From Catajapyx aquilonaris (Eukaryota): 22,691 bases of DNA. Of the stretch, positions 3,564 to 22,691 are shown one piece after another. The notes under the pieces were generated by a model. The model searched no databases, was not told the origin of the DNA, and worked only from the letters and a program-made list of their open reading frames with translations. The position numbers were made by a program, and so were the translations under genes. Within the stretch, counting starts at the first letter, position 1. Each line of letters begins with the position of its first letter. The stretch covers positions 62,001-84,691 of the forward strand of contig JYFJ02001344.1 in assembly GCA_000934665.2 (NCBI GenBank), read 5' to 3'.

Positions 3564-6105
3564 CTATGGCCTCCTTTCCGATCCGCCCTTTAGAGCCGCT
3601 GGGTTTGGGTATTGCGGATGCTCAATCACACCTTTGCCGAACTTCAGCTCGAGGAAGTCCCTCGCATTGTTCGGTACCGAGGCGTCGACTCCGACGAACT
3701 CAAGTCGCTCTAACGGTTTCAAAAAGCGCTCCGGAAACTCCATGTCCTGCGGATGCCCCAGAATCCATGTGTCCTTAGTCATGATCCCGCCGGAGCTCCG
3801 AAACGGGAAGATGTCAACATGCAACCTGGAATATTCGGGGTCAATCGTATGCATGACTAGCTCAGGTTACGTACCGGTACCTGTTAATGTGGGAGTAGTG
3901 AACGCGGAAGAAGTCGCCTTCTTTCGCCTTTTCCCAGACGAATCCAGATGCGTCTTCGGCCGGGCTTTTCCTGCGGGCTTCCTGCAGCGGCTTGCATTTG
4001 GATATATCGTCTGCGTACATTCCCAGGTCTACGTCGTAGTCCCATGGTATTATATCGCCGGTACGTACTGCGCCAAGTAAGCTACCGCCTTCCAACCAGT
4101 AGCGGACACCCGAGTCGTCCAGAGTCTGCGGGACATTGTGTTACAATCGGGGCCATTAAATGTGATTTAACTGACCTGCATGACATGCCGGGCCGTTTGT
4201 CTCAAGCCTTCGAGGCAGCATGGGGGTGTCCATCGACCTAGATGAAGGTAGTTTGGCGTGTCGTTCAGTACCGTCGGGAAGCATCGTGGCGTGTCTCGCC
4301 TGCAGCCGAACCAGTCTTCTTCAACGCCTTCACCGTCGCCATCACCGCTGTTCCGCACCACCCGTTTCATACCCATCTGGCGGTACAGATTGGCCAGACG
4401 AGCCGGAAGCAACTGCTCGTGCTTCCATCGCAGGTGGGAGTCCATGAAGAGCTGTCGGCCCGGTTGAAACACAACGGACTTCAGCAGCTGGACCTGAAAC
4501 GAACTGCGTCACACCCTGCTAGAGTACGCGACACGGCTTTACCTTCACGCGTCTGACCGCCGTTTGCAAGTACAGCGCTTCAGGAAACGGCCTGAGAAAC
4601 GGCTGGGCCAGGTCGGCCAGCAGCCTCGTCTCCATCATCACCACGTGTCTGTCGGCAATCGCATCGCACTTCCTGAAGTCTGACGCTCTGTACGAGTACT
4701 CAAGGGTCCAGCGGCGCACGCTCACTTTCAGGAGCATGCATTTGGTGGATGTGCCGGGAAACCTGGCGGCCACGGCCGACACGCTGTTGTCAAGTTCATG
4801 CAGCATCTGCTTCAGCTGGTATCCGGCGTCCAGACGTGTCGAGTCCGGCACGATCGCCACGTACCTGCAACCACACCATTTTGTTAAGAGTTACATGATA
4901 ATAAATGCAATCAACAACAATCAATCTTTGTTGAAAGCAAACCAGGACAAACAGACAGACAAACACGTAGCAGCTGGTTGCCACAGCAAACAAACTATGG
5001 CTTTTATAATAATAAATTTGCAGTACATTACTTTATTATAATTATATTATTTTATATTTAATCATTATTGGAAACCTGGACAAACAGACAAGCACATGGT
5101 AGCTTGTTGCCATGGTAAACATTGGCAAAGGAACTTTGTCTTTTATAATAGTAGACATTATTTTACTTATTACATTACACTATGTATAATTATTCATTTT
5201 TTAAATTATTCATTATGTAATTATTATTTTATACTCTTAAAAGTATGTTATTAATATTTTACTATTATTGCATATTGGAAACCTGGACAAACAGACAAAC
5301 ACATGGTAGCGGGTTGCCATGGCAGACAAACAGACGAATTTCGACTTTTATATTAGTAGAGATTTATTATTTTTAATTATATTATACAAGTATATTATTA
5401 TTGCTTACTGGAAATTTGGACAAAGAAACAAACTTTGTGTGTCATAGTAGTAGACCTTTCCTGTTTATTATTATTAAAATATTTTATTAAGTAATTATTA
5501 TATTATGTTATACAAGCATTTTAGTTTTTAAATATGATTGCTTATTGGAAACCCGGACAAGCGGACAAACTCTGCTTTTTATACATAATAATGATGCGGA
5601 TTTATAGTGCTCGTGTAGTGAGACCTGGTCTTGATGTAACTGATGGGGTCGAGATCCCTGAAGCGACTGGTGAGCTGTGGGTCGGTGGTGACCAGTCGGA
5701 CGTTGGTGGAGTTGTGGAGCTTCAAGGGCGGGTAGGGGTACTTCTCGGTGACCACCAGGACCCTCAGGGTGGGCATGGAGGAGAGGAAGGACCTGACCGT
5801 GGCCGGCACGTCGTTGTCGAAGTCCTCGAAGTCGTATATGACGACGGTGACGAACTCTGCCACGCTCATGTTGCTGTCCCTGCTCCAGGCCTTCAGCTGG
5901 GAGAGCTGGGGTCGCCTCAAGAGGTCCTGTCTGCGGAGGAGGTAAAGGGTCAGCATGCCTTGTCCCAAGTGGGTGTCCCCCAGCCAGCCAACCTGTCGTA
6001 GTAGGGCCTGTCCGATCCGCTGAGGTACCTCCAGAGCAGGTATATCGAGAGGAGGTTGAGCACCAGGAAGGTGAGGGTGACGCACTTCAAGCGACGGACT
6101 TTCAT
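3564..6105 (-). CDS. FKRP: Fukutin-related protein (ribitol-5-phosphate transferase, LicD/nucleotidyltransferase fold); complement(join(3564..3825,3881..4125,4176..4493,4543..4864,5625..5930,5993..6105)), 521 aa; alternative in-frame ATG at 6144
   Basis: Six exons with phase-consistent GT-AG introns of 62, 760, 49, 50 and 55 nt. Type II signal anchor ([25 protein letters not shown]), [18 protein letters not shown]....RCF..WTPPCC zinc-binding cysteines, [26 protein letters not shown] (DxD), LHVDIFPF and FLELKFG.GVIE.PQYPNP all match FKRP as I know it. Confidence 0.95.
4936..5590 (-). mobile_element. Five short Helitron-5'-end-like fragments separated by AT-rich spacers in FKRP intron 2
   Basis: Units near 4938, 5070, 5277, 5410 and 5547 read ggaaacctggacaaacagac...gttgcca...cttttata..agtaga on +. 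On - this is TCTACTAATATAAAAG followed by GTCT/GTTT microsatellite, the layout of non-autonomous arthropod Helitron 5' ends. No 3' hairpin-CTAG end seen. Confidence 0.5.
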
Positions 6106-6293
6106 CGCCAGGGAGACCGCTGCAGCCTTCTCAGACTCGCCCATGCAGCGCCTCTCCAACTAACTGGGGGTGCTTCCAACGCTCCAGGCAAACTAGTTGT
6201 TGGGGGGCCTCGGAGGCGCCGGAATTTGGCACGCGAATTGTGTGTGTGGTGCAAAAATTTAAGCGAAAAAATCACGGGAAATTATCACCGGGC

Positions 6294-6305: not shown

Positions 6306-6781
6306 GATTCAGGGTTGCCAATGCAAGGTTTACACGTTCAAGGCGCAACAGTGCGGACTGCGTTCGGCCCAATAGGAACACGGAATTGAGTCTCGCGCAT
6401 GCGTACTACTGGGAAATTGCTGGAACATGTAAATTGCTAGCTACTTTAGCCAGTTGAGTACAGGTTGAATATTAGCTATTGGTAGCAGTTAATTGCAGGA
6501 TTGCCAATGGCAGGTTTACACGTTCAAGGCGCAACAGTGCTGACTGGGTTCGAACCAATAGGAACACGGAATTGAGTCTCGCGCATGCGTACTAGTGGGA
6601 AATTGCTGGAACGTGTAAATATTTAGCTACTTTAGCCAGTTGAGTATTAGCTATTGGGAGCAGTTATTTGCAGGGTTGCCAATGGCAGGTTTACACGTGC
6701 AAGGCGCAACACTTCGGACCAATAAGAACGTGGCAATGAGTCTCACGCATGCGCACTGATTGAATGCTGCTGAAACACAAG

Positions 6782-7152
6782 CAGCCCACGGACACTTATA
6801 CTACGTTCTGGCGTTATCAGCTGCCGAGGGATTACGCAACGGGTGCCCACTAGAGATCGCTACGAGACATTTCCCAAGGCTATCATGTGGCGACCCTACC
6901 GGACTAAGGCTGAACTTTACAGGTACGAAGGGGAGGGCTACATTGGGGGGCCCAACATGGCCGCTGGCGGCCATATTGGGCCAGCATGTAGCCCTCCCCT
7001 TCGTACCTGTAAAGTTCAGCCTTAGTCCGGTAGGGTCGCCACATGATAGCATTGGGAAATGTCTCGTAGCGATCTCTAGTGGGCACCCGGTGCGTAATCC
7101 TTCGGCAGGGGGTGGGTGGGGAGTGACCTAACCTGAGTCTTCTACAGCCGTG
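6782..7152. mobile_element. Non-autonomous palindromic DNA transposon, copy 1 (371 bp, 8-bp TSD AACACAAG, internal 288-bp hairpin 6821-7108)
   Basis: TSD at 6774-6781 and 7153-7160. Ends are CAGCCCACGG... and ...CAGCCGTG. Arms are complementary apart from 4 mismatches and one asymmetric bubble. Homologous to 7897-8270. Confidence 0.9.
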
Positions 7153-7896
7153 AACACAAGCTTGCAGTTAATTTTTTGCCAGTTATTCATATTAGCTAAT
7201 CGTAGCGGTTATTTTATGCTGTAGCGTTTTGTTGACTTATATTAGCTCGAAGTAGCAGCTGCATACAGGGTTGGTAATATTAGGTTTACACATTCAAGGC
7301 GCAACGGTTCTGACCGATATGGACCAATAGGAACAAGGATTGCTCCACGCGCCTGCGTATCGTCGTTAAACAACTGGAACGTGTTAAAATACTTACATAC
7401 AGGGTAGCCAATAGCAAGTTTACACATTCAAGGCGCTAAAGTTTGGATCTGTTTGGACCAGGTTTGGACCAATAGAAAAGCAGTATTGCGTCACACGCAT
7501 GCGCACCGACTTATGACGATGAACGTGTAGAGTTATAGCAACTTTTGCCAGCTATTTATATTAGCTCAAAGCAGCAGTTATATGCTTACAGCTGCCTATC
7601 ATTGCCAGTTATTTATATCGCGCTAAAAGGAATAGCTATCTGCTGTAATATTTGTAAAATCAGGGCCGAAAGCAGCTTATTTATGTTATAAATAACCTGT
7701 TAACTGCTAACACATAAATAAACATCTTTCTAAGCGGTTATCCCAAGCGTTATCTTTTCCCTATATCATATAACTGCTACTTAGAGATAATATAGCTGTC
7801 AAAAAGTAGCTAGATATTTACACGATTCAACCCTTTTCAACAGTACGCATGCGTGCGGCTCAATACCGTGCGTCTATTGGTCCGTACAGTTGCGCC

Positions 7897-8270
7897 CAGC
7901 ACACGGACAGTTATACTACGTTCTGGCGTTATCACCTGCCGAGGCGTTTTGCAGCGATTTCTCACCTGAGACCGCCATAAGACATTTCGGAGCCTCGACA
8001 AGTGGCGACCCTACCGGACCAAGGTTGAACTTTATAGGTACGAAAGGGGGGGGGGGGCTACATGATGACCCAACATGGCCGCCGGCGGCCATGTTGGGCC
8101 ACCCAATGTAGCCCCCCCCTTTCGTACCTATAAAGTTCAACCTTGGTCCGGTAGGGTCGCCACTTGTCGAGGCTCCGAAATGTCTCATGGCGGTCTCAGG
8201 TGAGAAATCGCTGCAAAACGCCCCGGCAGTGGGGGGGTGGGAGTGACCTAACCTGTCTTCTATAACCATG
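7897..8270. mobile_element. Non-autonomous palindromic DNA transposon, copy 2 (374 bp, 8-bp TSD GTTGCGCC, internal 294-bp hairpin 7936-8229)
   Basis: TSD at 7889-7896 and 8271-8278. Removing the element and one TSD restores an intact inverted copy of the host repeat (compare the reverse complement of 6671-6758). Arms differ by 2 mismatches, a G12/C8 run and one asymmetric bubble. Confidence 0.92.
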
Positions 8271-8446
8271 GTTGCGCCTTTAACGTATAAACATGCGTTT
8301 GGCAACCATGCACTTGTCTGGAAACTTGAATAAATTTTAACATCTACAAAACTTATTTTAAAATGATCCGGATTTTTAAATACATGTATATTATAAAAGC
8401 AAAATTAATGTCGATTCATAATTATGGCATGTGAGAGCCGTTCCGA

Positions 8447-8481
8447 GTGACGTCACGTCCTGTCGGTTCAAAGTTTTCGAA
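8447..8481 (+). promoter_or_regulatory. Putative PMF1 promoter: palindromic CRE plus two CHR-like elements
   Basis: GTGACGTCAC at 8447-8456, TTCAAA (TTTGAA on -) at 8467-8472 and TTCGAA at 8476-8481, 30-65 nt upstream of the ATG at 8511. Motif match only. Confidence 0.4.
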
Positions 8482-8510
8482 CATCTCTTTTGCCTTCCAT
8501 TGTCCCTCGA

Positions 8511-10620
8511 ATGGAAGCCGCCGAACAAAGGATGGCGGAAGGGGCCTCCTCCGATGGAGGAAGGGGCGACCAGCCGGGGCAACGGACACCGCCACTAGTA
8601 CAGGCCGAGGAGAAAGAAGAGGTCAGCTCCACCAGGCCAAAGGTCGGCAGGCCCAGGTCGAAGAGGCTGAAGGAGGCGCTGGACGTGATGGCAAACCATG
8701 TGGCAGATGGACTCAGGTTAACAACCAGGGGAGGGAGAAACAACCAAGGAGTGGCGGGGGGAAACTAGATTAATTACTTATTAAATTAACGCAATTAATT
8801 AGTAAGAAGCCAACGGCAGACGGAAAAAATTAGGAAAGCCGCAAAAGGTTCCAGTGTGTTCCGAAAAGTGGAACATGACCAGCACTGTAAGCGCCGTTGT
8901 TTGTTTGTCCATGTGGTAACCCAGTAGCCATGGACGAACAAACAAACGAGAGTTGCCATGGAGACATGTGGCCATGGTCAAACAAATACCCAAACGACTG
9001 TTGCCATGGACAAACAAACAATAGTTGCCATGGAGACACCCCCCGATGGTGTCTCCACCTTATCGTGGTGGTTGGGGTTTGCGTTTCTCCCGTGACCCCA
9101 AGAGCTATGCCGGCGGTAGCTTCGTCTGCTGGTAGGGCCGCCGAAGTCGGACAGGTCTTTGGGATAGGAGACACACTCAGAGCAATGCCAGTCTTTCCTC
9201 TCTTTTTTTTCCTCTTCGTATCTCTCTCCATCTGTCCCACCTTTGCTTCTTCTTATAGCCAGATAGCCATAGTTGCTTTGGCTTCTTCTGAATAAACCAA
9301 ACCAAACCATAGAGACATGTAGACATGGACAAACAATCAAACAAGAGTTGCTATCCATGTACAAACAAACAAACGACCGTTGCCATCCACGGACGAACAA
9401 ACAAACGACCGTTACCATCCACGGACGAACAAGCAAACTACCGTTGCCATCCAGGGACAAACAAACAAGCGACCGTTGCCATCCATGAACGAACAAACAA
9501 ACGACTGTTCCCATGGGATCAAAGTGGGAGTTTAAAAAGTGGATCCTACTCTAGTCCAGTTGGCTAAATCTCCATAATTATTACATATGGTTATTAGTAA
9601 TAGGCCAACAGGCAGATATTTAAAAATATATATTTTGAGTTGAAAGTATGAAAATGCATGTTTCACGCAATACAGAGTAACGACTACATAGTTTTGTATA
9701 TTCCTGGTGTTATAAGTAACCAGCAGCCAAATCTGTTCTTCGCACTGTCTCGTATGAACACTGAGTCGCGTTTTGTCATGCAATGCAATTAGGTACAGTT
9801 TTAAAATGCAAGAGCTTAGTAAACTGTGTGGTATTAATGTTGCGAATCTTCCTGGACATGTTTGGTGATATTTTTCAGATTCTGCTGTCCGAGCATGGTG
9901 TGGACGACTCTTGAGCGTTGGTGGTCAGGTCGGGTCGAGTCGCAACTTTGTGGTATTCAGACTCAAATTGCACTTGTCCCGGCCTGATCAACAATCTGCC
10001 TAACAAGCAAGCGAACAGGGTCAAACAAACAAACTTAGCCTTTTATGATAGTAGCGATTCGATGGATAATGTCAAGCCGTCGTAATTTGACTAATTTTTC
10101 GTTTGTAGCTACAGCAAGTTCTGCAGCTCGTTTCCGGAAGTGGCCCGGAAGAACCCGAAGGCGACTAGAGCCATGTACGACCAGATGCGGGCCACTCTAA
10201 GGGAGGAGCTGCTTAACGAGGTGCAGTGTGTGGTGCAAGACAAGGACCTTGTTGAGAAGCTGGACCGTCTTGACCAGCTGGTCAAGACGGCGGGGCCTAG
10301 TGGAAATCCACCTGGATGGTACGACATCGCTGCATTGTATCACATGGGGTGCTAATCGGTACTTTTCCAGGCGTCCAAGTAAGGATCCGGGTGCGGACCA
10401 GTTGGCTCATGACATGCGAGCGAAGCTTGAGACGAAGCGGAGGCTGCAGAAGTTGTTGGCTCATGAGGACGCACGTTTGGCGGCACTTAAGCAGGAGGTG
10501 GCAGACGGACGGAAGCGACTAGCCGAAGTTGTGAAGGCCAGGAAGGATCTCATGGCAATCTCGCTGGAGCAGGCTGCAGCTCAGGAAAGAGCGGAGGAAG
10601 ACCTACTCAACATGTGTTAA
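8511..10620 (+). CDS. PMF1: Polyamine-modulated factor 1 / Nnf1 (MIS12 kinetochore complex subunit); join(8511..8716,10109..10318,10371..10620), 221 aa
   Basis: Two phase-2 GT-AG introns (1392 and 52 nt) give an open frame: ..RSKRLKEALDVM..GL-SYSKFCSSFP..MYDQMRATLREELLNEV..LVEKLDRLDQLV..PGW-RPSKDP.., then a C-terminal coiled coil (EVADGRKRL). The order of SYxxF, YD and WRPSxxP motifs matches PMF1/Nnf1. Confidence 0.82.
8895..9035. repeat. Degenerate GGACAAACAAAC/GTTGCCATGG repeat units, including a short inverted pair, in PMF1 intron 1
   Basis: gtttgtttgtccatg..catggacgaacaaac inverted pair near 8899-8943, then three gttgccatgga-type units. Confidence 0.7.
9325..9515 (+). repeat. 32-bp tandem repeat (~6 copies) of the same family
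   Basis: The unit acggacgaacaaacaaacgaccgttgccatcc recurs at 9389, 9421, 9453 and 9485, with degenerate flanking copies. Confidence 0.85.
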
Positions 10621-11042: not shown

Positions 11043-12270
11043 ATGATGCAGGAGGACTCCAACGGCGAATCGACCTTCGAGTTTGTTGAAGGAGGGAAGG
11101 GAGCCAGGCCCAAGACCAACAAGGGTATGACGCAGTTGCCATGGACAAAACCGTTGCCATGTCACGGACAAACAAACTTGTCTCGTGAAGATTTCTGAAA
11201 TAATTGATTTAATTAGGTGCGTCGGCTGCGTCTGGCCCGATGCCGACTCCTGCCTTGCCGCTGTCAGTTGTGTCGTTGTCGTCAACGCCGCCGTCGCAGA
11301 TGCAACCAGCTCCGCCAGCACCGCCACCGAGCACCGTTGATTTCGGGACGGCTCATCCAAGCGGCGGGTCCGCCCGACTGATGGACTGGTTCGGAGGTGG
11401 TTTGCTCTCGAAGGTTGCGGAGAAGGCGCAGAACTCGGTGCAGTCCGTGATCACCACACTTGATCCGCAGATGCGCGAGTTTATATGTAAGTACGACATC
11501 TGCATTTGTGGCAGGGTGATTTCAGTGGAGCAATTTCAGATTCCGGTGGCGACATTGACATCGTCGTGGCGTCGGACAAGGAGGCTAAAGTCAGCCCGAT
11601 TCGTGAAGGATTCCAGTCCACTTTTGGGAAAGCGACTGTGAGGTGAGGTTCGGTATGATACTACCCGATTTCATACTAACATGCAATAATTTTGAAGGGG
11701 TATGGCAGCACAGGCTCCGACGATGGCGGCCCAGCCAGTCGGATTCGTAGCCGGCGTTAAGGGTGCGGAGGAGCGGATTCATTGTCTTAGGTCAGGTAGC
11801 GACCTTGAGGAAGGCCAGGTCGTGGTCGCTTCTGAGGGGTTTCTTGTAGAGGCCACCCAGGACAGGTGGTTCGAAGCGTCCGCCCTCGTCCTGAGCGACC
11901 CTGCAAAGGGCGTGACCCTCCAGACTTACACTCAACTGACGCCAGTCCCGCTTGAGTGGGTAACGCAAGCACAGGAAGATACGCCTTCGGATTACCCCAT
12001 GAGGTGGGCTGGACTCGGAGTCACCGTAGGAGAGATCGCTGCCAAGAGGTTGCAGGTTGGTTTCATAATATTTAAATTTTAATTAATTTTAAAATTTAAC
12101 TTCGCAGGATATACTGACATACTTTCCCTTTTATATATAACTTGTAATGTTTATTGCAGGTTCCCCATTGGCAGTGGCATGAGGCATTGACTGGTGTGAC
12201 CCGAAGAGACATGATTTTGATAGCTGCCAGGACTTTGGCGGGGCTGTACAAAAGTGCACTTAAGGTGTGA
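11043..12270 (+). CDS. PRRC1: Proline-rich coiled-coil protein 1 (PRRC1, C-terminal NTPase/YjjX-like domain); join(11043..11124,11217..11486,11540..11642,11698..12055,12160..12270), 307 aa
   Basis: Five exons with phase-consistent GT-AG introns (92, 53, 55, 104 nt), and a TACTAAC branch point at 11674-11680. Pro-rich N-terminus, KVAEKAQNSVQSVITTLDPQM, SGGDIDIVVASDKEAKV, AAQPVGFVAGVKGAEERI, TP.DYPMRWAGLGVTVGE and WHEALTGVTRRDMI..AARTLAGLYK match PRRC1. Confidence 0.93.
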
Positions 12271-14254: not shown

Positions 14255-15180
14255 AGTAGCTGCTATTTGCTAGTAGTAGCTACTTTAAACAATTTAGTAG
14301 TAGCTACTTAAACAATTTGTTAGTAGTAGCTACTTAGAACAATTTGTTAGTAGCAGATACTATCTTAGAGACATCTTAGTAGTAGATGCTTAGTATAGCT
14401 GTCTTCTAGTAGTAAGATGCTATTGCACTGTTAGTATTGTAGCAGTATCTTACTACTAGAATCTACTACCAGATCTACAAGTAATTAGTAGTAGATGTTT
14501 AGTAGAGAAATTTGTTAGTAGTAGATGTTTAGTAGAGAAATTTGTTAGTAGTAGATATGTAGCAGAGCTCTTTTAGCAGATGCTTAGTAGAGAAATTTGT
14601 TAGTAGTAGATGTGTAGCAGAGCTCTTTTAGTAGATGCTTAGTAGAGCCATCTTAGTAGTAGTAGTTTTATAAAGATATAGTTGATGTTTAGTATAGAAA
14701 TAATTTGTTAGCAGAAGATGCTTAGTAGAGCTACCAGTACTGCTGTATTTGTTAGTAACAGCTGCTTAGTAGCTGTCTGTTAGTAGGCCTACTATCTACT
14801 TAGACCTATTTGCTATCAGTAGTTCTATTTGTAGTCTATTTGTTAGTAACAGCTGCTTAGTGTAGTTGTCTGTTAGTAGTACCTACTTAGAGCTATTTGC
14901 TAGCAGTAGATAGTAGGACTATATGTCAGTAGAAGCTGATTAGCAGTACTGTTTGGTAGTAGTAAGTTATTTGCTTAGTAGAGCTTGTTAGTAGTCGTTG
15001 CCTAGTAGGGCAATTTATTAGTAGTACTTAGTAGATGCTTAGTCTATCAATTTATTAGTAGTACTTAGTAGATGCTTAGTCTATCAATTTATTAGTAGTA
15101 CTTAGTACGGTAGATGCTTAGTCTTATCAATTTATTAGTAGTTCATGCTTAGTAGAGCTCTATGCTAGTAGTAGCTACTG
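14255..15180 (+). repeat. Degenerate TAGTAG-rich satellite (~30-bp and ~37-bp units)
   Basis: Units such as atgtttagtagagaaatttgttagtagtag (14495, 14525) and tttattagtagtacttagtagatgcttagtctatcaa (15014, 15051, 15088). Confidence 0.85.
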
Positions 15181-15983: not shown

Positions 15984-16162
15984 GATGAAGCAGGAGCTGC
16001 AGCAGCCATGTGGAGCGAGAAGTATTCATACCTTCTGTCGCTTTTGGAGAGACCTAGGCGACTTCTGGATGCTGAAGAACGACAGAAGAAGTTGGAACAG
16101 CTTCAAAAGGCATACAGTCTCGAGAGGCTTTTGGTGGAAAAGGCAGTGCAGCAAGACTCAGG
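15984..16162 (+). CDS. Putative second coding exon of the same unidentified gene (DEAGAAAAMWSEKYSYLLSLLERPRRLLDAEERQKKLEQLQKAYSLERLLVEKAVQQDS-G), coiled-coil-like
   Basis: Acceptor ..ttgaaagCAG| at 15983 and donor GG|GTAGGT at 16163. The exon is stop-free in phase 0, so it joins 14148..14204 in frame. Helical L/E/K/R-rich composition. This frame is absent from the supplied ORF track. Confidence 0.55.
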
Positions 16163-16695
16163 GTAGGTCAATCCCCTGGATACAAAATGGCTTGTGCTAG
16201 GCCTAGGTGAAGCCACTGAAGACAACATGGATTCTAGGCCTCGTGCAAGGCCTAGGTGAATCCTCTGGATACAAAATGGCTGCTAGGTCTCGTGATAGAC
16301 CTACTGTAGTACTAGCACTGCTAGTAGCCATTTTCTCTTCAGAGGCTTCACCTTGGCCTAGCACGAGGCCTAGTGGCCATTTTGTCACAGGCTAGGACTA
16401 GATGAATCCTCTGAAGACAAAATGGCTGCCAAGCCCCGTTCTAGGCCTGGGTTCTTGTGTCCTTGTGAGTCTCCATTTTGTCACATGCTATGGGGAGCTA
16501 GGCTTAGGTCAATCCCCTGGATGCAAAATGGCTACTAGGCCTTGTGCTAGGCCTAGGTGAAGCCACTGAAGACAAAATGGATTCTAGGCCTAGCTTCTTG
16601 CCCTAATGAGTCGCCATTTTGTCACAGCCCTAGGTGAATCCTTTGGATACAAATTGACTGCTCAGCCTCTTGTAGGCCTAGGTTCTTGCCCTAAT
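16163..16695. repeat. Degenerate ~50-bp repeat with CTAGGCCTAG palindromes and CAAAATGGC motifs in both orientations
   Basis: ctaggcctaggtgaagccactgaagacaa at 16197 and 16547. Inverted units lie around 16320-16395. Confidence 0.8.
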
Positions 16696-17234
16696 AAGCT
16701 CTCAAAGGTGCAATGTCTGCCACGAACTGCTAAGTTTCTCGCGATAACCATCGGGTCATTTTCACCATTTGGAGGACCGGATGCTCGTCATGGAAGGGGC
16801 AGTCACAGGGTGACGATTCCTATTCAAATTTTAATTATGGTACCTGCTGCACAGTGCGTGGTGACTGGGCGTCCATTTTTGGGTCCTCTCTGTGTGTACA
16901 GTGTTTATCAGGAAGGATGATAATATGCAGATGAAGTTTTTAAAGGCAACAGGTTATGTTGACAGTGGCATTATTAGGAAATAAATTAAATCCACGTGGG
17001 TACGAGTCGACTGTTATTATCAGACCGTTACAAAATGACGTTTTCGGAGACGCGCTATCTTTACGTTTTATCAACAGTGCCAACCAGTTCCTCGTAACTG
17101 GAAAAAAAACAACTGAACATATTATTGTACGCAATACATGTGAAATTTATGTGCTACCAGTTTTAACTATTATTTAAAACATAAGTTTGCAGAGCAGTTA
17201 GCCAGTCCCGTTTATGCATCTGAAATTTACATGT

Positions 17235-17358: not shown

Positions 17359-18379
17359 TTACTAATATTTGTATTACATTAAAATCCACTTCCACGTACA
17401 CCAGTGCATTGTAAGGGAATAATATTGCGCTAATATATGCTAATATTTTATTTTATTTATTACTTATTATATTACCGGTACTTTATTTTAATATTTTGGC
17501 AACAATACTTATTTACATTAAATATAATATATATATAATTCACGACGGACGTCAGTGCACTCTAGGGGAATAATATTGAGCCAATATGTGCTTAGCAATT
17601 CCGCCTCGATTATTTGCAAAAAAGTTTGCAAAAAATTCCCACTGGCAAAAATTTGCCAATTTTCGCACCCATGACGTAAGTCAGGTGTTAGCCACCCTTC
17701 CCAAACCAAAATTCGCCAAATCTGGTCTGTTTTGCCACAAAAAATTCGCACACTTTTAGCAAAAAAAACTATAGCTACAAGCCCGATTTGGCGTGCAAAC
17801 CGGGGAAGCTCGTTACGGATTTAATTTCTGCATATTTAACAAGCATCCCAGCGCCAGATAGCGATTCAGCTTTATAGGTCACATCCTCCCCCCATTGATT
17901 TGCCTGGCCTCCCCAACAATGCGAAAAAAAAATTTGCACACAGAAAAAAAAACAATAGAGTTTTTGTCACTGGCGATTCTGGTGTGAAAAACGCGTTGTT
18001 TTTCGATCCACACCAGCTCTCACGCCTTGTTATTCATTATGTTTCATTTAAAGCCTAATTGTGGTATCAAAGACAAAAAAGGATTGGAGAGTATGGGGCC
18101 CACCCACTTGTTTGTTTGTTTGTTTTGGGGGGGGGGGGAGGGGGTGGCAAAAACAAACAACGGGAGCAATTACGGTGCAGGTGACATACAGGGCACAAGC
18201 GGATTAATCACAGGTGGGGGACTCTCTTTTGGTATGGGGTATCCGCACCTACACATATGCAAAGTTGGAGCAATTAAAACCCTAAACAGGAACTTGGTTG
18301 AAGTACGCTATTCATGTGAGGTCTGTTTGTTACATCAACTCAGCTCAGGTAGTACCATGCCCATCACATCGATATCGCA

Positions 18380-19580
18380 AATGGCATATTGGCAAAACCA
18401 CAATAACGTTCGTTGGCATGCAGTTGCCGATACACAACCCTCAATAAATGCTCAGCTCGTTATGTTCGCGATTAATCATCAAGGGCGACGCACTGTGCCT
18501 GGCAGGGCTACAAGCGGGCCCATCAGCTTATTATATTTTATCACATTGTGTTCCACCCTGTACTTTCTGGACGGAACAGAAAGAGGGCATTGGCTGGGAT
18601 TTCCATGGCAATTTGGCAAAGCCACAATAAGGTTCGTTGGCCGGCGGTGCACTCCTGCCACTTTCAGGGCAACCCATGGCATATTGGAAAATCCACAATA
18701 ACGTTTGTTGGCCTGCGGTGCACTCCTGCCACTTTCAGGGCAACCCATGGCATATTGGAAAATCCACAATAACGTTTGTTGGCCTGCCGTGCACTCCTGC
18801 CACTTTCAGGGCATCCCATGGCAAATTGGAAAATCCACAATAACGTTTGTTGGCATGCGGTGCACTCCTTTCAGGGCAACCCATGGCATATGGGAAAATC
18901 CACAATAACGTTTGTTGGCCTGCGGTGCACTCCTGACACTGTCATGGCATCCCATGGCAAATGGGAAAATCCACAATAACGTTTGTTGGCCTGCGGTGCA
19001 CTCCTTTCAGGGCAACCCATGGCATATGGGAAAATCCACAATAACGTTTGTTGGCCTGCGGTGCACTCCTGCCACTGTTAGGCCATCACATGGCATATTG
19101 GTAACGCAACAATAACGTTTGTTTCGGTAATGCTGCGGATTCACAGCCCACAACAGCTCGCTACACTCGCAATTAATCATCGGACGCGACGTACCGTGCC
19201 TGGCAGGGACACAAGTGAGCCGATTAGCTCATTATATTCCATTACATTGTGCTCCACCCTGTACTTTCTGGCTGAGATGGTACACAGAGTGGGGGATTTC
19301 CATGGCAACGGGTTGCCATAGCAAATTGGCAAAGCCACAGTAACGTTCGTTGGCCTGCAGCGCACAAGACTGCCAGTAATGTTGTGGATATACACAGCCC
19401 ACAATATTAAAGCGCTCAGCTCGCTACACTCGTATCTAGCGCGACGTACCGTGCATGTCAGGGCCACATCCTATTAGCTGATGACCGTTTCATTACATTG
19501 TCGTGCACCCTGTACTTTCTGACTAGATGTAACAGAGAGAAGAGCATTGGCTTGGGGGGGGGCGAATGGAAATCCCATGA
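18380..19580 (+). repeat. Nested tandem repeat: three ~225-bp units enclosing a seven-unit 71/65-bp array (18622-19106)
   Basis: ccacaataacg-like starts at 18398, 18622, 18693, 18764, 18835, 18900, 18971, 19036, ~19107 and 19335. The long units share cgcgacgtaccgtgcc..cattacattgtg..caccctgtactttctg. Confidence 0.9.
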
Positions 19581-21105: not shown

Positions 21106-22184
21106 AATTTCAAGTTAAATTGAAAAATAGTTAACGACTTAATTAAAATTTTCCCTAAAATATATTTAACAATTAAATCGAATCTCAAAATTAAATTTCT
21201 GTTTGAAACAAAAATGGTCTCCTACTCGATGCGGACAATTTGCACAAAATATTGTCTTGGGATTATTTTTTTTCTTCAAATTTTGCACATCCTCATGTTG
21301 CGGAAGCGGATACAGTAACGGAAGATTTTGCAGGATGTTACTCTGGAAGATGTGTGTAGATGAATTTTGTGTTGTAAAATGATACATCTGCAAGGAGTAA
21401 TTAACTAGGTTGTTAGCAGATTAGCTGAACCGGTTTGTAACTGCTAGTCAAGGTTGGGAGGCTGTTAATTACACTTATTACAACATGCAAAAAAATATTT
21501 TTTTCCCCATCTTTTGCATATGAAGCTGAACCAGCTCTAAATGACTGTAATATTTTAAAATATCTGGATGGTATTTATTCTGCCAGACAATTATAGTTAC
21601 GTAAAGCTTTTCATTATGATAATGCACACATCAGCTGGATTCGGAGCATGAAATCTTGCATCTATTTGTCAAGCAGCTGTTACTCGCATTATAATTATTA
21701 TGTAATTATTATTCTCTCGCTTATTATACGTGAAGCTTTTCTCATGTGAAAAACCGCCCGTACGTACACCTTTTAAAATAATATAACTCATTAAAATATT
21801 CATTTTAGTTATCAAAATGTTTGTTACCAGCTGCTTACTATAACATGTCACATTTAAGCGGTTAATTGCAGCATAAAAGTAGCCTATATTAGCTGGTAAT
21901 ATCAGGTCAATTTGATCCGCGATCCGGACTCTGAATCGCATTCAATTTGCGATCGGCAATAATGGTCCCACTGACCTAGATCTGCCACCTAGATCCGAAT
22001 AACCTAGAACTAGATCCTACTATTATCAGCTCATATCTTTGACACCTCTAAAAGTAGGCTATCCATCCTGAAATAATTACCGTACATGAAAAATAAAATA
22101 GTTAAATGCCAAATATGCCAAGAGCTATTTGATTATTTGATAGTAGTCTAGTAGCTGTTTAACAGAGTCTTCTTGGTATGATAG

Positions 22185-22492
22185 ATGCTTAGTAGAGACA
22201 TCTTATGAGATGTTTAGTAGAGCGACCTTAGTAGATGTTTAGTAGAGCTATTTGTTAGTAGTAAAGGTTTAGTAGAGCCATCTTAGTAGATGTTTAGTAG
22301 AGCTATTTGTTAGTAGTAAATGTTTAGTAGAGCTATTTGTTAGTAGTAAATGTTTAGTAGAGCTATTTGTTAGTAGTAAATGTTTAGTAGAGCTATTTGT
22401 TAGTAGTAAATGTTTAGTAGAGCTATTTGTTAGTAGTAAATGTTTAGTAGAGCCATCTTAGTAGATGTTTAGTAGAGCTATTTGTTAGTAGT
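22185..22492 (+). repeat. 30-bp TAGTAG-rich satellite, same family as 14255-15180
   Basis: Five perfect copies of tgtttagtagagctatttgttagtagtaaa at 22291-22440, flanked by shorter variant units. Confidence 0.92.
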
Positions 22493-22691
22493 ATTATTTT
22501 TTATTTATTTTTATTATTTATTTTATTTTCCTACCCCGTACTCAGGCGTGCGCCTGTATTGGGGGACACATACACACTCTCTTTTTTTTACAGATTACTT
22601 TTGTAGTTACAAATTTGGCAAATTATCAGATGTTTAGAGGTTTCCGGATTACATTGAAAAGTTGATTCTTTTATTTACATTGTGAAAAAAA

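Follow-up and report, generated by a model that had tools for sequence, protein, structure and literature searches.

The sequence examined here, referred to below as the window, comprises 22,691 nt of Catajapyx aquilonaris DNA (contig JYFJ02001344.1, positions 62,001-84,691 of the forward strand; GCA_000934665.2). It is eukaryotic DNA with compact, intron-split genes, and it harbors two copies of a short palindromic element inserted in a local repeat array. The genes and the array are arranged as follows.

1783-2577: short-chain dehydrogenase gene
about 3567-6130, minus strand: fukutin-related protein gene, with FKRP_N and LicD domains
6310-8305, no strand assigned: host array of ~186-bp units, which receives both copies of the element
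11213-12079: weak match to DUF84 near 11700, below the cut-off

Downstream of copy 2, two open frames on the plus strand (8451-8768 and 10201-10620) are coding-like and have no Pfam match. The window also contains several other repeats. A second, shorter hairpin lies at 1030-1111 (35-bp arms, 94% complementary, with a 12-nt loop and GTTT/AAAC runs), and 32-bp repeats related to it occupy 8925-9546. A TAGTAG-rich minisatellite of 25-30 bp is found at 14268-15180 and again, 7 kb apart, at 22182-22500, and a 71-bp tandem repeat (7.5 copies, diverged in the flanking units) occurs at 18378-19381. Repeats of ~49 bp are clustered in both orientations at 16153-16700, and the first unit resembles the right end of the element on the reverse strand (22/24); this stretch, 16153-16176, was rejected as a further copy because it has neither a matching end structure nor an exact duplication.

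The ~186-bp array consists of five forward units and one reversed unit and adjoins the fukutin-related protein gene on its upstream side. Each unit carries a CCAAT box and a GCGCATGCG-like palindrome, which we take to be promoter-like. Because contig depth over 7164-7852 is single-copy, the array is a local feature and not a genome-wide repeat. The insertion points of the two copies within the unit differ, that of copy 2 being in the reversed one, and when the element is removed in silico the flanks realign to the host unit with 85/117 and 114/165 identical columns. The parts of the two copies are listed below.

6774-6781, plus strand: left target-site duplication of copy 1 (AACACAAG)
6782-6820, plus strand: unique left end of copy 1, 39 bp, starting with CA
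6821-6943, plus strand: left arm of copy 1, 123 bp, of which the outer ~65 bp are variable and the inner ~57 bp are conserved
6944-6950, plus strand: left side of the copy 1 bubble, 7 nt, TGGGGGG
6951-6980, no strand assigned: inner palindrome of copy 1, 30 bp, with 2 mismatched pairs
6981-6985, plus strand: right side of the copy 1 bubble, 5 nt, CCAGC
6986-7108, minus strand: right arm of copy 1; 3 mismatches in 123 bp against the left arm
7109-7152, plus strand: unique right end of copy 1, 44 bp, with a G-rich start and a TG finish
7153-7160, plus strand: right target-site duplication of copy 1
7889-7896, plus strand: left target-site duplication of copy 2 (GTTGCGCC)
7897-7935, plus strand: unique left end of copy 2, 39 bp
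7936-8063, plus strand: left arm of copy 2; G run 4 nt longer than in the partner arm
8064-8068, plus strand: left side of the copy 2 bubble, 5 nt, GATGA; inverted relative to copy 1
8069-8098, no strand assigned: inner palindrome of copy 2, 30 bp, perfect
8099-8105, plus strand: right side of the copy 2 bubble, 7 nt, CCACCCA
8106-8229, minus strand: right arm of copy 2; 2 mismatches and the G-run length difference against the left arm
8230-8270, plus strand: unique right end of copy 2, 41 bp, with a TG finish
8271-8278, plus strand: right target-site duplication of copy 2

With refined boundaries, copy 1 spans 6782-7152 (371 bp) and copy 2 spans 7897-8270 (374 bp), and the two are 78% identical. 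Both are non-coding; the short frames that cross them represent read-through of the palindrome and have no coding capacity. Each copy is built around its 30-bp inner palindrome: the two sides of the bubble enclose it, the arms lie outside these, and a unique left or right end is outermost, so that the internal palindrome of ~290 bp starts 39 bp inside the left end and stops 41-44 bp inside the right end. The element strand is predicted to fold at -186 kcal/mol (z -32.6). The ends are CA..TG, with only the 2 terminal letters complementary and with 3 and 2 matches in the two copies among the first 11 letters, and are therefore not terminal inverted repeats (TIRs). As a reading of the sequence without database searches had claimed, the element is a mobile one that generates target-site duplications (TSDs): both copies are flanked by a perfect 8-bp duplication, and the other lengths among 5-11 bp fail. 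The same reading was right that the unique ends of the two copies are co-oriented, the left ends being identical at 36/39 positions and the right ends at 36/44, each in one direction. The duplicated sequences of copies 1 and 2 are unrelated, and each occupies a different place in the host unit, so that no target specificity was found in these two insertions.

Independent data were available as contigs from four DNA runs, all belonging to a single sample of a single study, and these contigs were compared with the window over 6740-8320. In all four runs, a contig of 808 bp corresponds to 7124-7931 without a difference; it leads from the right end of copy 1 across the spacer into the left end of copy 2, which confirms that these three parts are contiguous and that the copies are co-oriented neighbors. 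In run X4, 11 contigs with unrelated flanks stop at 6782. Across the four runs, the depths summed at three end positions exceed that of the single-copy spacer by a factor of 268-1,289, a ratio that is not itself a copy number, and suggest a dispersed family of several hundred copies. The runs also contain internally deleted relatives, in which joints at 6840-7110, 6905-7023 and 7955-8171 skip 269, 117 and 215 bp, respectively; these retain the ends, have lost most or all of the hairpin and occur at about single-copy depth, as expected for an unstable palindrome. Other contigs differ at the ends: 3-5 contigs per run have a variant left end before 7916, and 6-9 contigs in runs X2 and X3 continue behind 8248 with the subterminal sequence of the element followed by a different right end. 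These may be sister families or longer relatives, and possibly leads to an autonomous partner.

The fixed-length TSD, the fixed ends, the dispersed occurrence, the high abundance and the lack of coding sequence identify the element as a non-autonomous class II (DNA) transposon; neither poly(A) nor an LTR was found in it. The element is short (371-374 bp), abundant and stably folded like a MITE but lacks TIRs, and it therefore belongs neither to the MITEs in the strict sense nor to the hAT or P superfamilies. The latter two also produce 8-bp TSDs, and their TIRs are about 11 bp or more. HUH transposons such as Helitron and Replitron, which have no TSD or a variable one and carry short terminal hairpins or direct repeats, are excluded by the fixed 8-bp TSD. 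A hairpin-transfer replicon, comparable to a parvovirus or an AAV inverted terminal repeat, was rejected because the palindrome is not at the terminus. Dada was likewise rejected, since its TSDs are described as 6-7 bp and its targets as small-RNA genes (PMC3706591), whereas the element has an 8-bp TSD and other targets. No transposase domain, Rep-like or other, was found in the 22 of the 53 open frames of the window that were scanned. The exact pattern of the left end was absent from both the viral and the metagenome contigs scanned (0 loci each), a centre pattern was likewise absent from the metagenome contigs (0 loci), and copy 1 had no BLASTN match among 50,697 phage records. Seven viral loci with an 18-letter arm pattern match over at most 18-29 letters by BLAST and have no second arm, and are attributed to chance.

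The features of the ends fit the KDZ (Zisupton/Kyakuja-type) transposons best, which provides a lead and not a membership, as it was drawn by comparing the ends with published descriptions. In the descriptions cited, Kyakuja has CA..TG ends, no TIR and a 7-bp TSD, Zisupton and Dileera have 8-bp TSDs (PMC12730594), and KDZx1 has an 8-bp TSD with no TIR detected (10.1101/2024.08.15.608186). The element agrees with Kyakuja in its CA..TG ends without TIRs but not in the length of its TSD, because 8 bp fits both copies, and it shares the 8-bp TSD with Zisupton and Dileera; TIRs, which the element lacks, are described for Zisupton and KDZ1 but vary within the family. Kyakuja and Zisupton have been called understudied (10.1101/2020.06.13.149070), and non-autonomous elements are classified in Repbase by TSD length and alignment of the ends (PMC4455052).

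The two copies differ in the orientation of the bubble that separates the arms from the inner palindrome. The four bubble coordinates given in the sequence-only reading are exact in both copies, and its observation that the reverse complement of the copy 2 centre matches copy 1 holds for 9/12 bubble letters. In the flipped orientation this match contains no gaps (score +6), whereas the unflipped comparison requires two 2-nt gaps (score -4); for the whole centre, the alignment score is 101 flipped and 85 unflipped. At the three divergent bubble letters of copy 2, 56-97% of the contig depth carries the letter that restores the exact reverse complement of copy 1, and these differences are therefore derived. 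There is thus one family bubble, of which copy 2 has a slightly mutated, reversed version. The bubble is kept in most of the family, as 94-97% of the depth agrees at position 8101. The flip is visible only because the two ends of the element are unlike.

The alternative that no inversion took place, and that small indels and substitutions arose independently in the two bubbles, derives some plausibility from the marker itself, which comprises only 12 G/C-rich letters with partly complementary sides and is the sole marker of inversion, the apex being symmetric in most copies (6965). Such divergence would nevertheless require the loss of 2 nt on one side and the gain of 2 nt on the other in a way that recreates the reverse complement. 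A match of 9/12 arises in only 0.08% of 200,000 random draws at the letter composition of the elements (chance 0.0008), and the family majority restores the exact match at all three mismatches. Independent divergence is therefore scarcely credible.

The reversal of the bubble between the co-oriented copies is confirmed in the assembled sequence. It could still have been generated by the assembly, if the near-identical arms were left unphased and one bubble was placed backwards. Phasing of the bubble to a unique end means crossing a perfectly self-complementary arm of 65 bp in copy 1 and 74 bp in copy 2, for which reads or words longer than 65-74 bp are required. Contigs break inside both copies, and none of the 32 pieces listed (with 3,301 further ones beyond the listing) extends from a unique end into the bubble, so that the orientation inside each copy is taken from the window assembly alone; this assembly is fragmented, with 1,246 windows on 1,121 pieces. 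Nevertheless, differences confined to one arm are preserved (three in copy 1, at 6878, 6839 and 6828; two in copy 2, at 7979 and 7942, and the G run), and the letter peculiar to one arm at 6839 is found at about single-copy depth (32.4, compared with 35.9 in the spacer; run X2), which together indicate that the arms were not collapsed in the assembly. Moreover, 100-bp reads or read pairs are able to phase gaps of 65-74 bp. An artefact of assembly is thus considered unlikely. Because contigs that fit both arms are aligned to one arm only (7995 vs 8170), positions at which the window letter lacks contig support, such as 7077 and 7995, were not counted as private variants. A loose end before 8209 (2 contigs, run X1), which resembles a deleted copy and has the 7-nt side on the left, was left out of the orientation count.

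Comparison of the four arms of the two copies over 128 aligned columns reveals 91 invariant columns and 28 that differ by copy, 0 that differ by side, 0 crosswise and 9 in which one arm is different, 4 of the latter being the G-run gap of copy 2. By a crude estimate, about 1.6 mirrored columns would be expected without copying from arm to arm. At the mirrored sites 7957/8208, 7958/8207 and 7960/8205, copy 2 carries minority alleles on both arms in all four runs, with 74-97% of the depth having the other letter, and such mirrored variants therefore mark subfamilies. Evidently, the arms have been overwritten repeatedly during the history of the family, and the mismatches that remain (3 in copy 1 and 2 in copy 2, or about 1% per arm) have accumulated since the last overwriting. 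Hairpin transfer of the viral type turns mismatches over yet keeps them, and it makes no mirrored substitutions. The 28 mirrored differences thus require arm-to-arm copying, for which hairpin transfer alone is insufficient. The inversion comprises at least the 42-bp centre; its break points are not placeable within homogenised arms.

The inner and outer parts of the arms have not been conserved equally. Between the two copies, 53/59 positions of the inner arm but only 44/66 of the outer arm are identical (Fisher p 0.002), and the contrast persists when the choice of break point is allowed for by permutation (p 0.011); contig depth is lower over the outer arms. The core is not a repeat of the end motifs, since all four local alignments are no better than those of shuffled sequences (p 0.43-1.0), and a search of the element for RNA families in Rfam gave 8 matches, of which the best (43.9 bits) is below the gathering cut-off of 83. 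The conserved core may be a protein-binding stretch from a parent element, a survivor effect or a cis-acting site for copying.

As a whole, these features are probably best explained by a TIR-less, KDZ-like non-autonomous DNA transposon in which switching or recombination between the arms occasionally inverts the centre. A transposase supplied in trans would cut the two unlike ends and integrate the element with an 8-bp stagger, of which the duplication is seen and the enzyme is presumed. The interior may have been born by a fold-back or template switch during gap repair, which would leave one subterminal stretch present twice in inverted orientation. During replication or the repair of excision gaps, a polymerase would now and then copy the other arm, such that one arm is overwritten, whereas a switch to the opposite strand or sister across the centre, or a crossover between the arms, would invert the 42-bp centre. 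The inverted version could then be multiplied by ordinary transposition as a member of a subfamily. The flip is thus most likely an occasional by-product of the palindrome and not a step of transposition; as two full-length copies were compared, "occasional" denotes a reading and not a rate.

Template switching between inverted repeats homogenises their arms, and an intermolecular switch inverts the spacer (PMC8604942); the latter event is reported to be reversible, recurrent and favored by longer arms, and has been seen repeatedly in yeast (PMC8604942). The same geometry of switching has been described for ordinary chromosomal inverted repeats (PMC8794818). In the published spacer inversions, as described there, the arms measure 10-16 bp and the spacers 2-5 bp, far less than in the element (PMC8604942, PMC8794818). 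For hairpin MITEs, an origin by arm-to-arm template switching in post-excision gap repair has been proposed (PMC3814204), and in Galileo internal sequence has been recruited in inverted orientation and central regions have been swapped (PMC3573991).

Some observations stand against occasional switching between the arms. Although the arms are overwritten, the bubble has survived in the two copies as well as in most family members, and repeated overwriting by random conversion tracts should sometimes erase it. Perfect palindromes tend to be lost, and this survivor bias is a possible answer. In addition, the better-kept inner arm hints at a function of the core beyond the template-switch model.

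Alternatively, the two orientations may have been fixed since two subfamilies originated or separated early on, by a single inversion or by two independent fold-back events, with no flipping thereafter. The 78% identity of the copies and the minority subfamily alleles in copy 2 agree with such an ancient event, and one inversion somewhere in the history of two copies this divergent suffices, so that they do not call for routine flipping. However, the arms have evidently been overwritten many times, and the same process has been reported to invert spacers repeatedly in yeast (PMC8604942). A strictly ancient event is quite unlikely; it is the low-rate limit of occasional inversion, and two copies cannot separate the two.

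At the other extreme, the element may be copied by way of a hairpin or cruciform that is nicked, unfolded and copied, with the core flipping routinely and being conserved as the site of nicking or resolution. The two copies show one orientation each, conservation is higher in the core (inner arm, bubble and inner palindrome) than in the outer arm, over which depth dips, the strand folds with the strong stability given above, and the bubble is kept as are the bubbles of viral flip/flop sequences. On the other hand, the hairpin is internal to an element with fixed ends and an 8-bp duplication, whereas the flip/flop of AAV is described for its replicating termini (PMC5948225), and most HUH transposons are reported to lack a duplication (PMC10288648). 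Mismatches between the arms would not be overwritten by hairpin transfer, yet 28 columns are mirrored; at 78% identity one old event is enough; and the scanned frames of the window lack a Rep-like or other transposase domain. Routine copying of this kind is therefore doubtful. The suggestion of the sequence-only reading that a hairpin or cruciform intermediate takes part in transposition is disfavored on the same grounds (the internal position of the hairpin, the fixed ends and TSD, and the mirrored arms), whereas template switching or recombination between inverted repeats, which it also named, is the cause preferred here.

A more specific form of this view would be that a TIR-less lineage with 8-bp TSDs, possibly of the KDZ type, has short derivatives that multiply by a fold-back or cruciform, with the conserved ~150-bp core acting in cis as a site nicked or resolved in each round. 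This is improbable; if it held, the centre would flip routinely, the arms would be re-paired and corrected at each move, and MITEs would have a replicative route of amplification that combines integration by a transposase with a resolution of hairpins resembling that of viral ends.

If the flip is the rare by-product that we judge likeliest, the element represents a tidy case of known mutation chemistry. So far, the matching of the arms and the high copy number of hairpin mini-transposons have been argued from models, with little direct evidence. In elements whose palindrome reaches the tips, a flipped centre resembles a reversed insertion and is unscoreable; here, the unlike ends and the lopsided centre allow each of several hundred copies to record its own orientation. 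The family could thus reveal how often inversion occurs, how it is tied to transposition and how long the tracts of arm overwriting are, and it would add an animal example to the poorly described group of short, TIR-less elements with 8-bp TSDs. Among the titles listed by a literature search that covered mostly open-access papers, with most subscription journals and Repbase outside it, flipped centres were not found in a eukaryotic transposon family, nor was a short, TIR-less element that combines an 8-bp TSD, a long internal palindrome and a scoreable flip. The processes involved are already known; their combination in one element did not appear there.

Among the systems with which the element can be compared, mutation of quasi-palindromes by template switching (the Ripley model; PMC8604942, PMC8794818) shares the mirrored changes of the arms and the inversion of the centre in place, with no dedicated enzyme. 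In the cases described in these sources, which lie in genes, the arms measure ~10-16 bp and the spacers 2-8 nt (PMC8604942, PMC8794818). The element, by contrast, is mobile and has arms of ~123 bp and an inverted part of at least 42 bp. Among the MITEs with a whole-foldback or long-TIR structure is Angel of zebrafish. The PALTA, PALTTAA, Cele, Hairpin and Goblin MITEs are likewise short, non-coding, high-copy, hairpin-shaped and flanked by target duplications (PMC3814204). In the whole-foldback and long-TIR MITEs described in that source, the palindrome reaches the tips as TIRs (PMC3814204), whereas in the element unlike ends of 39 and 41-44 bp lie outside it, by which a flipped centre can be distinguished from a reversed insertion.

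With the KDZ transposons, the element shares CA..TG ends without TIRs, as in Kyakuja, and an 8-bp TSD, as in Zisupton, Dileera and KDZx1 (PMC12730594; 10.1101/2024.08.15.608186); it differs from the 7-bp TSD of Kyakuja and the TIRs of Zisupton, and short palindromic KDZ derivatives are not described in the accounts drawn on here. Galileo, the foldback P-type transposon of Drosophila, has the same near-identical inverted arms, recruitment of inverted sequence and exchanged centres, but is characterized by true long TIRs, kilobase size and a known P-family transposase, and no scored flip of its centre is mentioned in the account drawn on here (PMC3573991). Dada also has no TIRs, but its TSDs of 6-7 bp and its small-RNA targets (PMC3706591) differ from the 8-bp TSD and the two unrelated targets of the element.

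A formal likeness is also found in viruses, in which imperfect palindromes exist in two reverse-complement forms. Those of poxviruses form the telomeres. The inverted terminal repeats of AAV and other parvoviruses share this feature with the element, but, as described, they are terminal, serve as origins of replication, are nicked by a viral protein and occur in the two forms at near-equal ratios (PMC5948225), whereas the palindrome of the element is internal.
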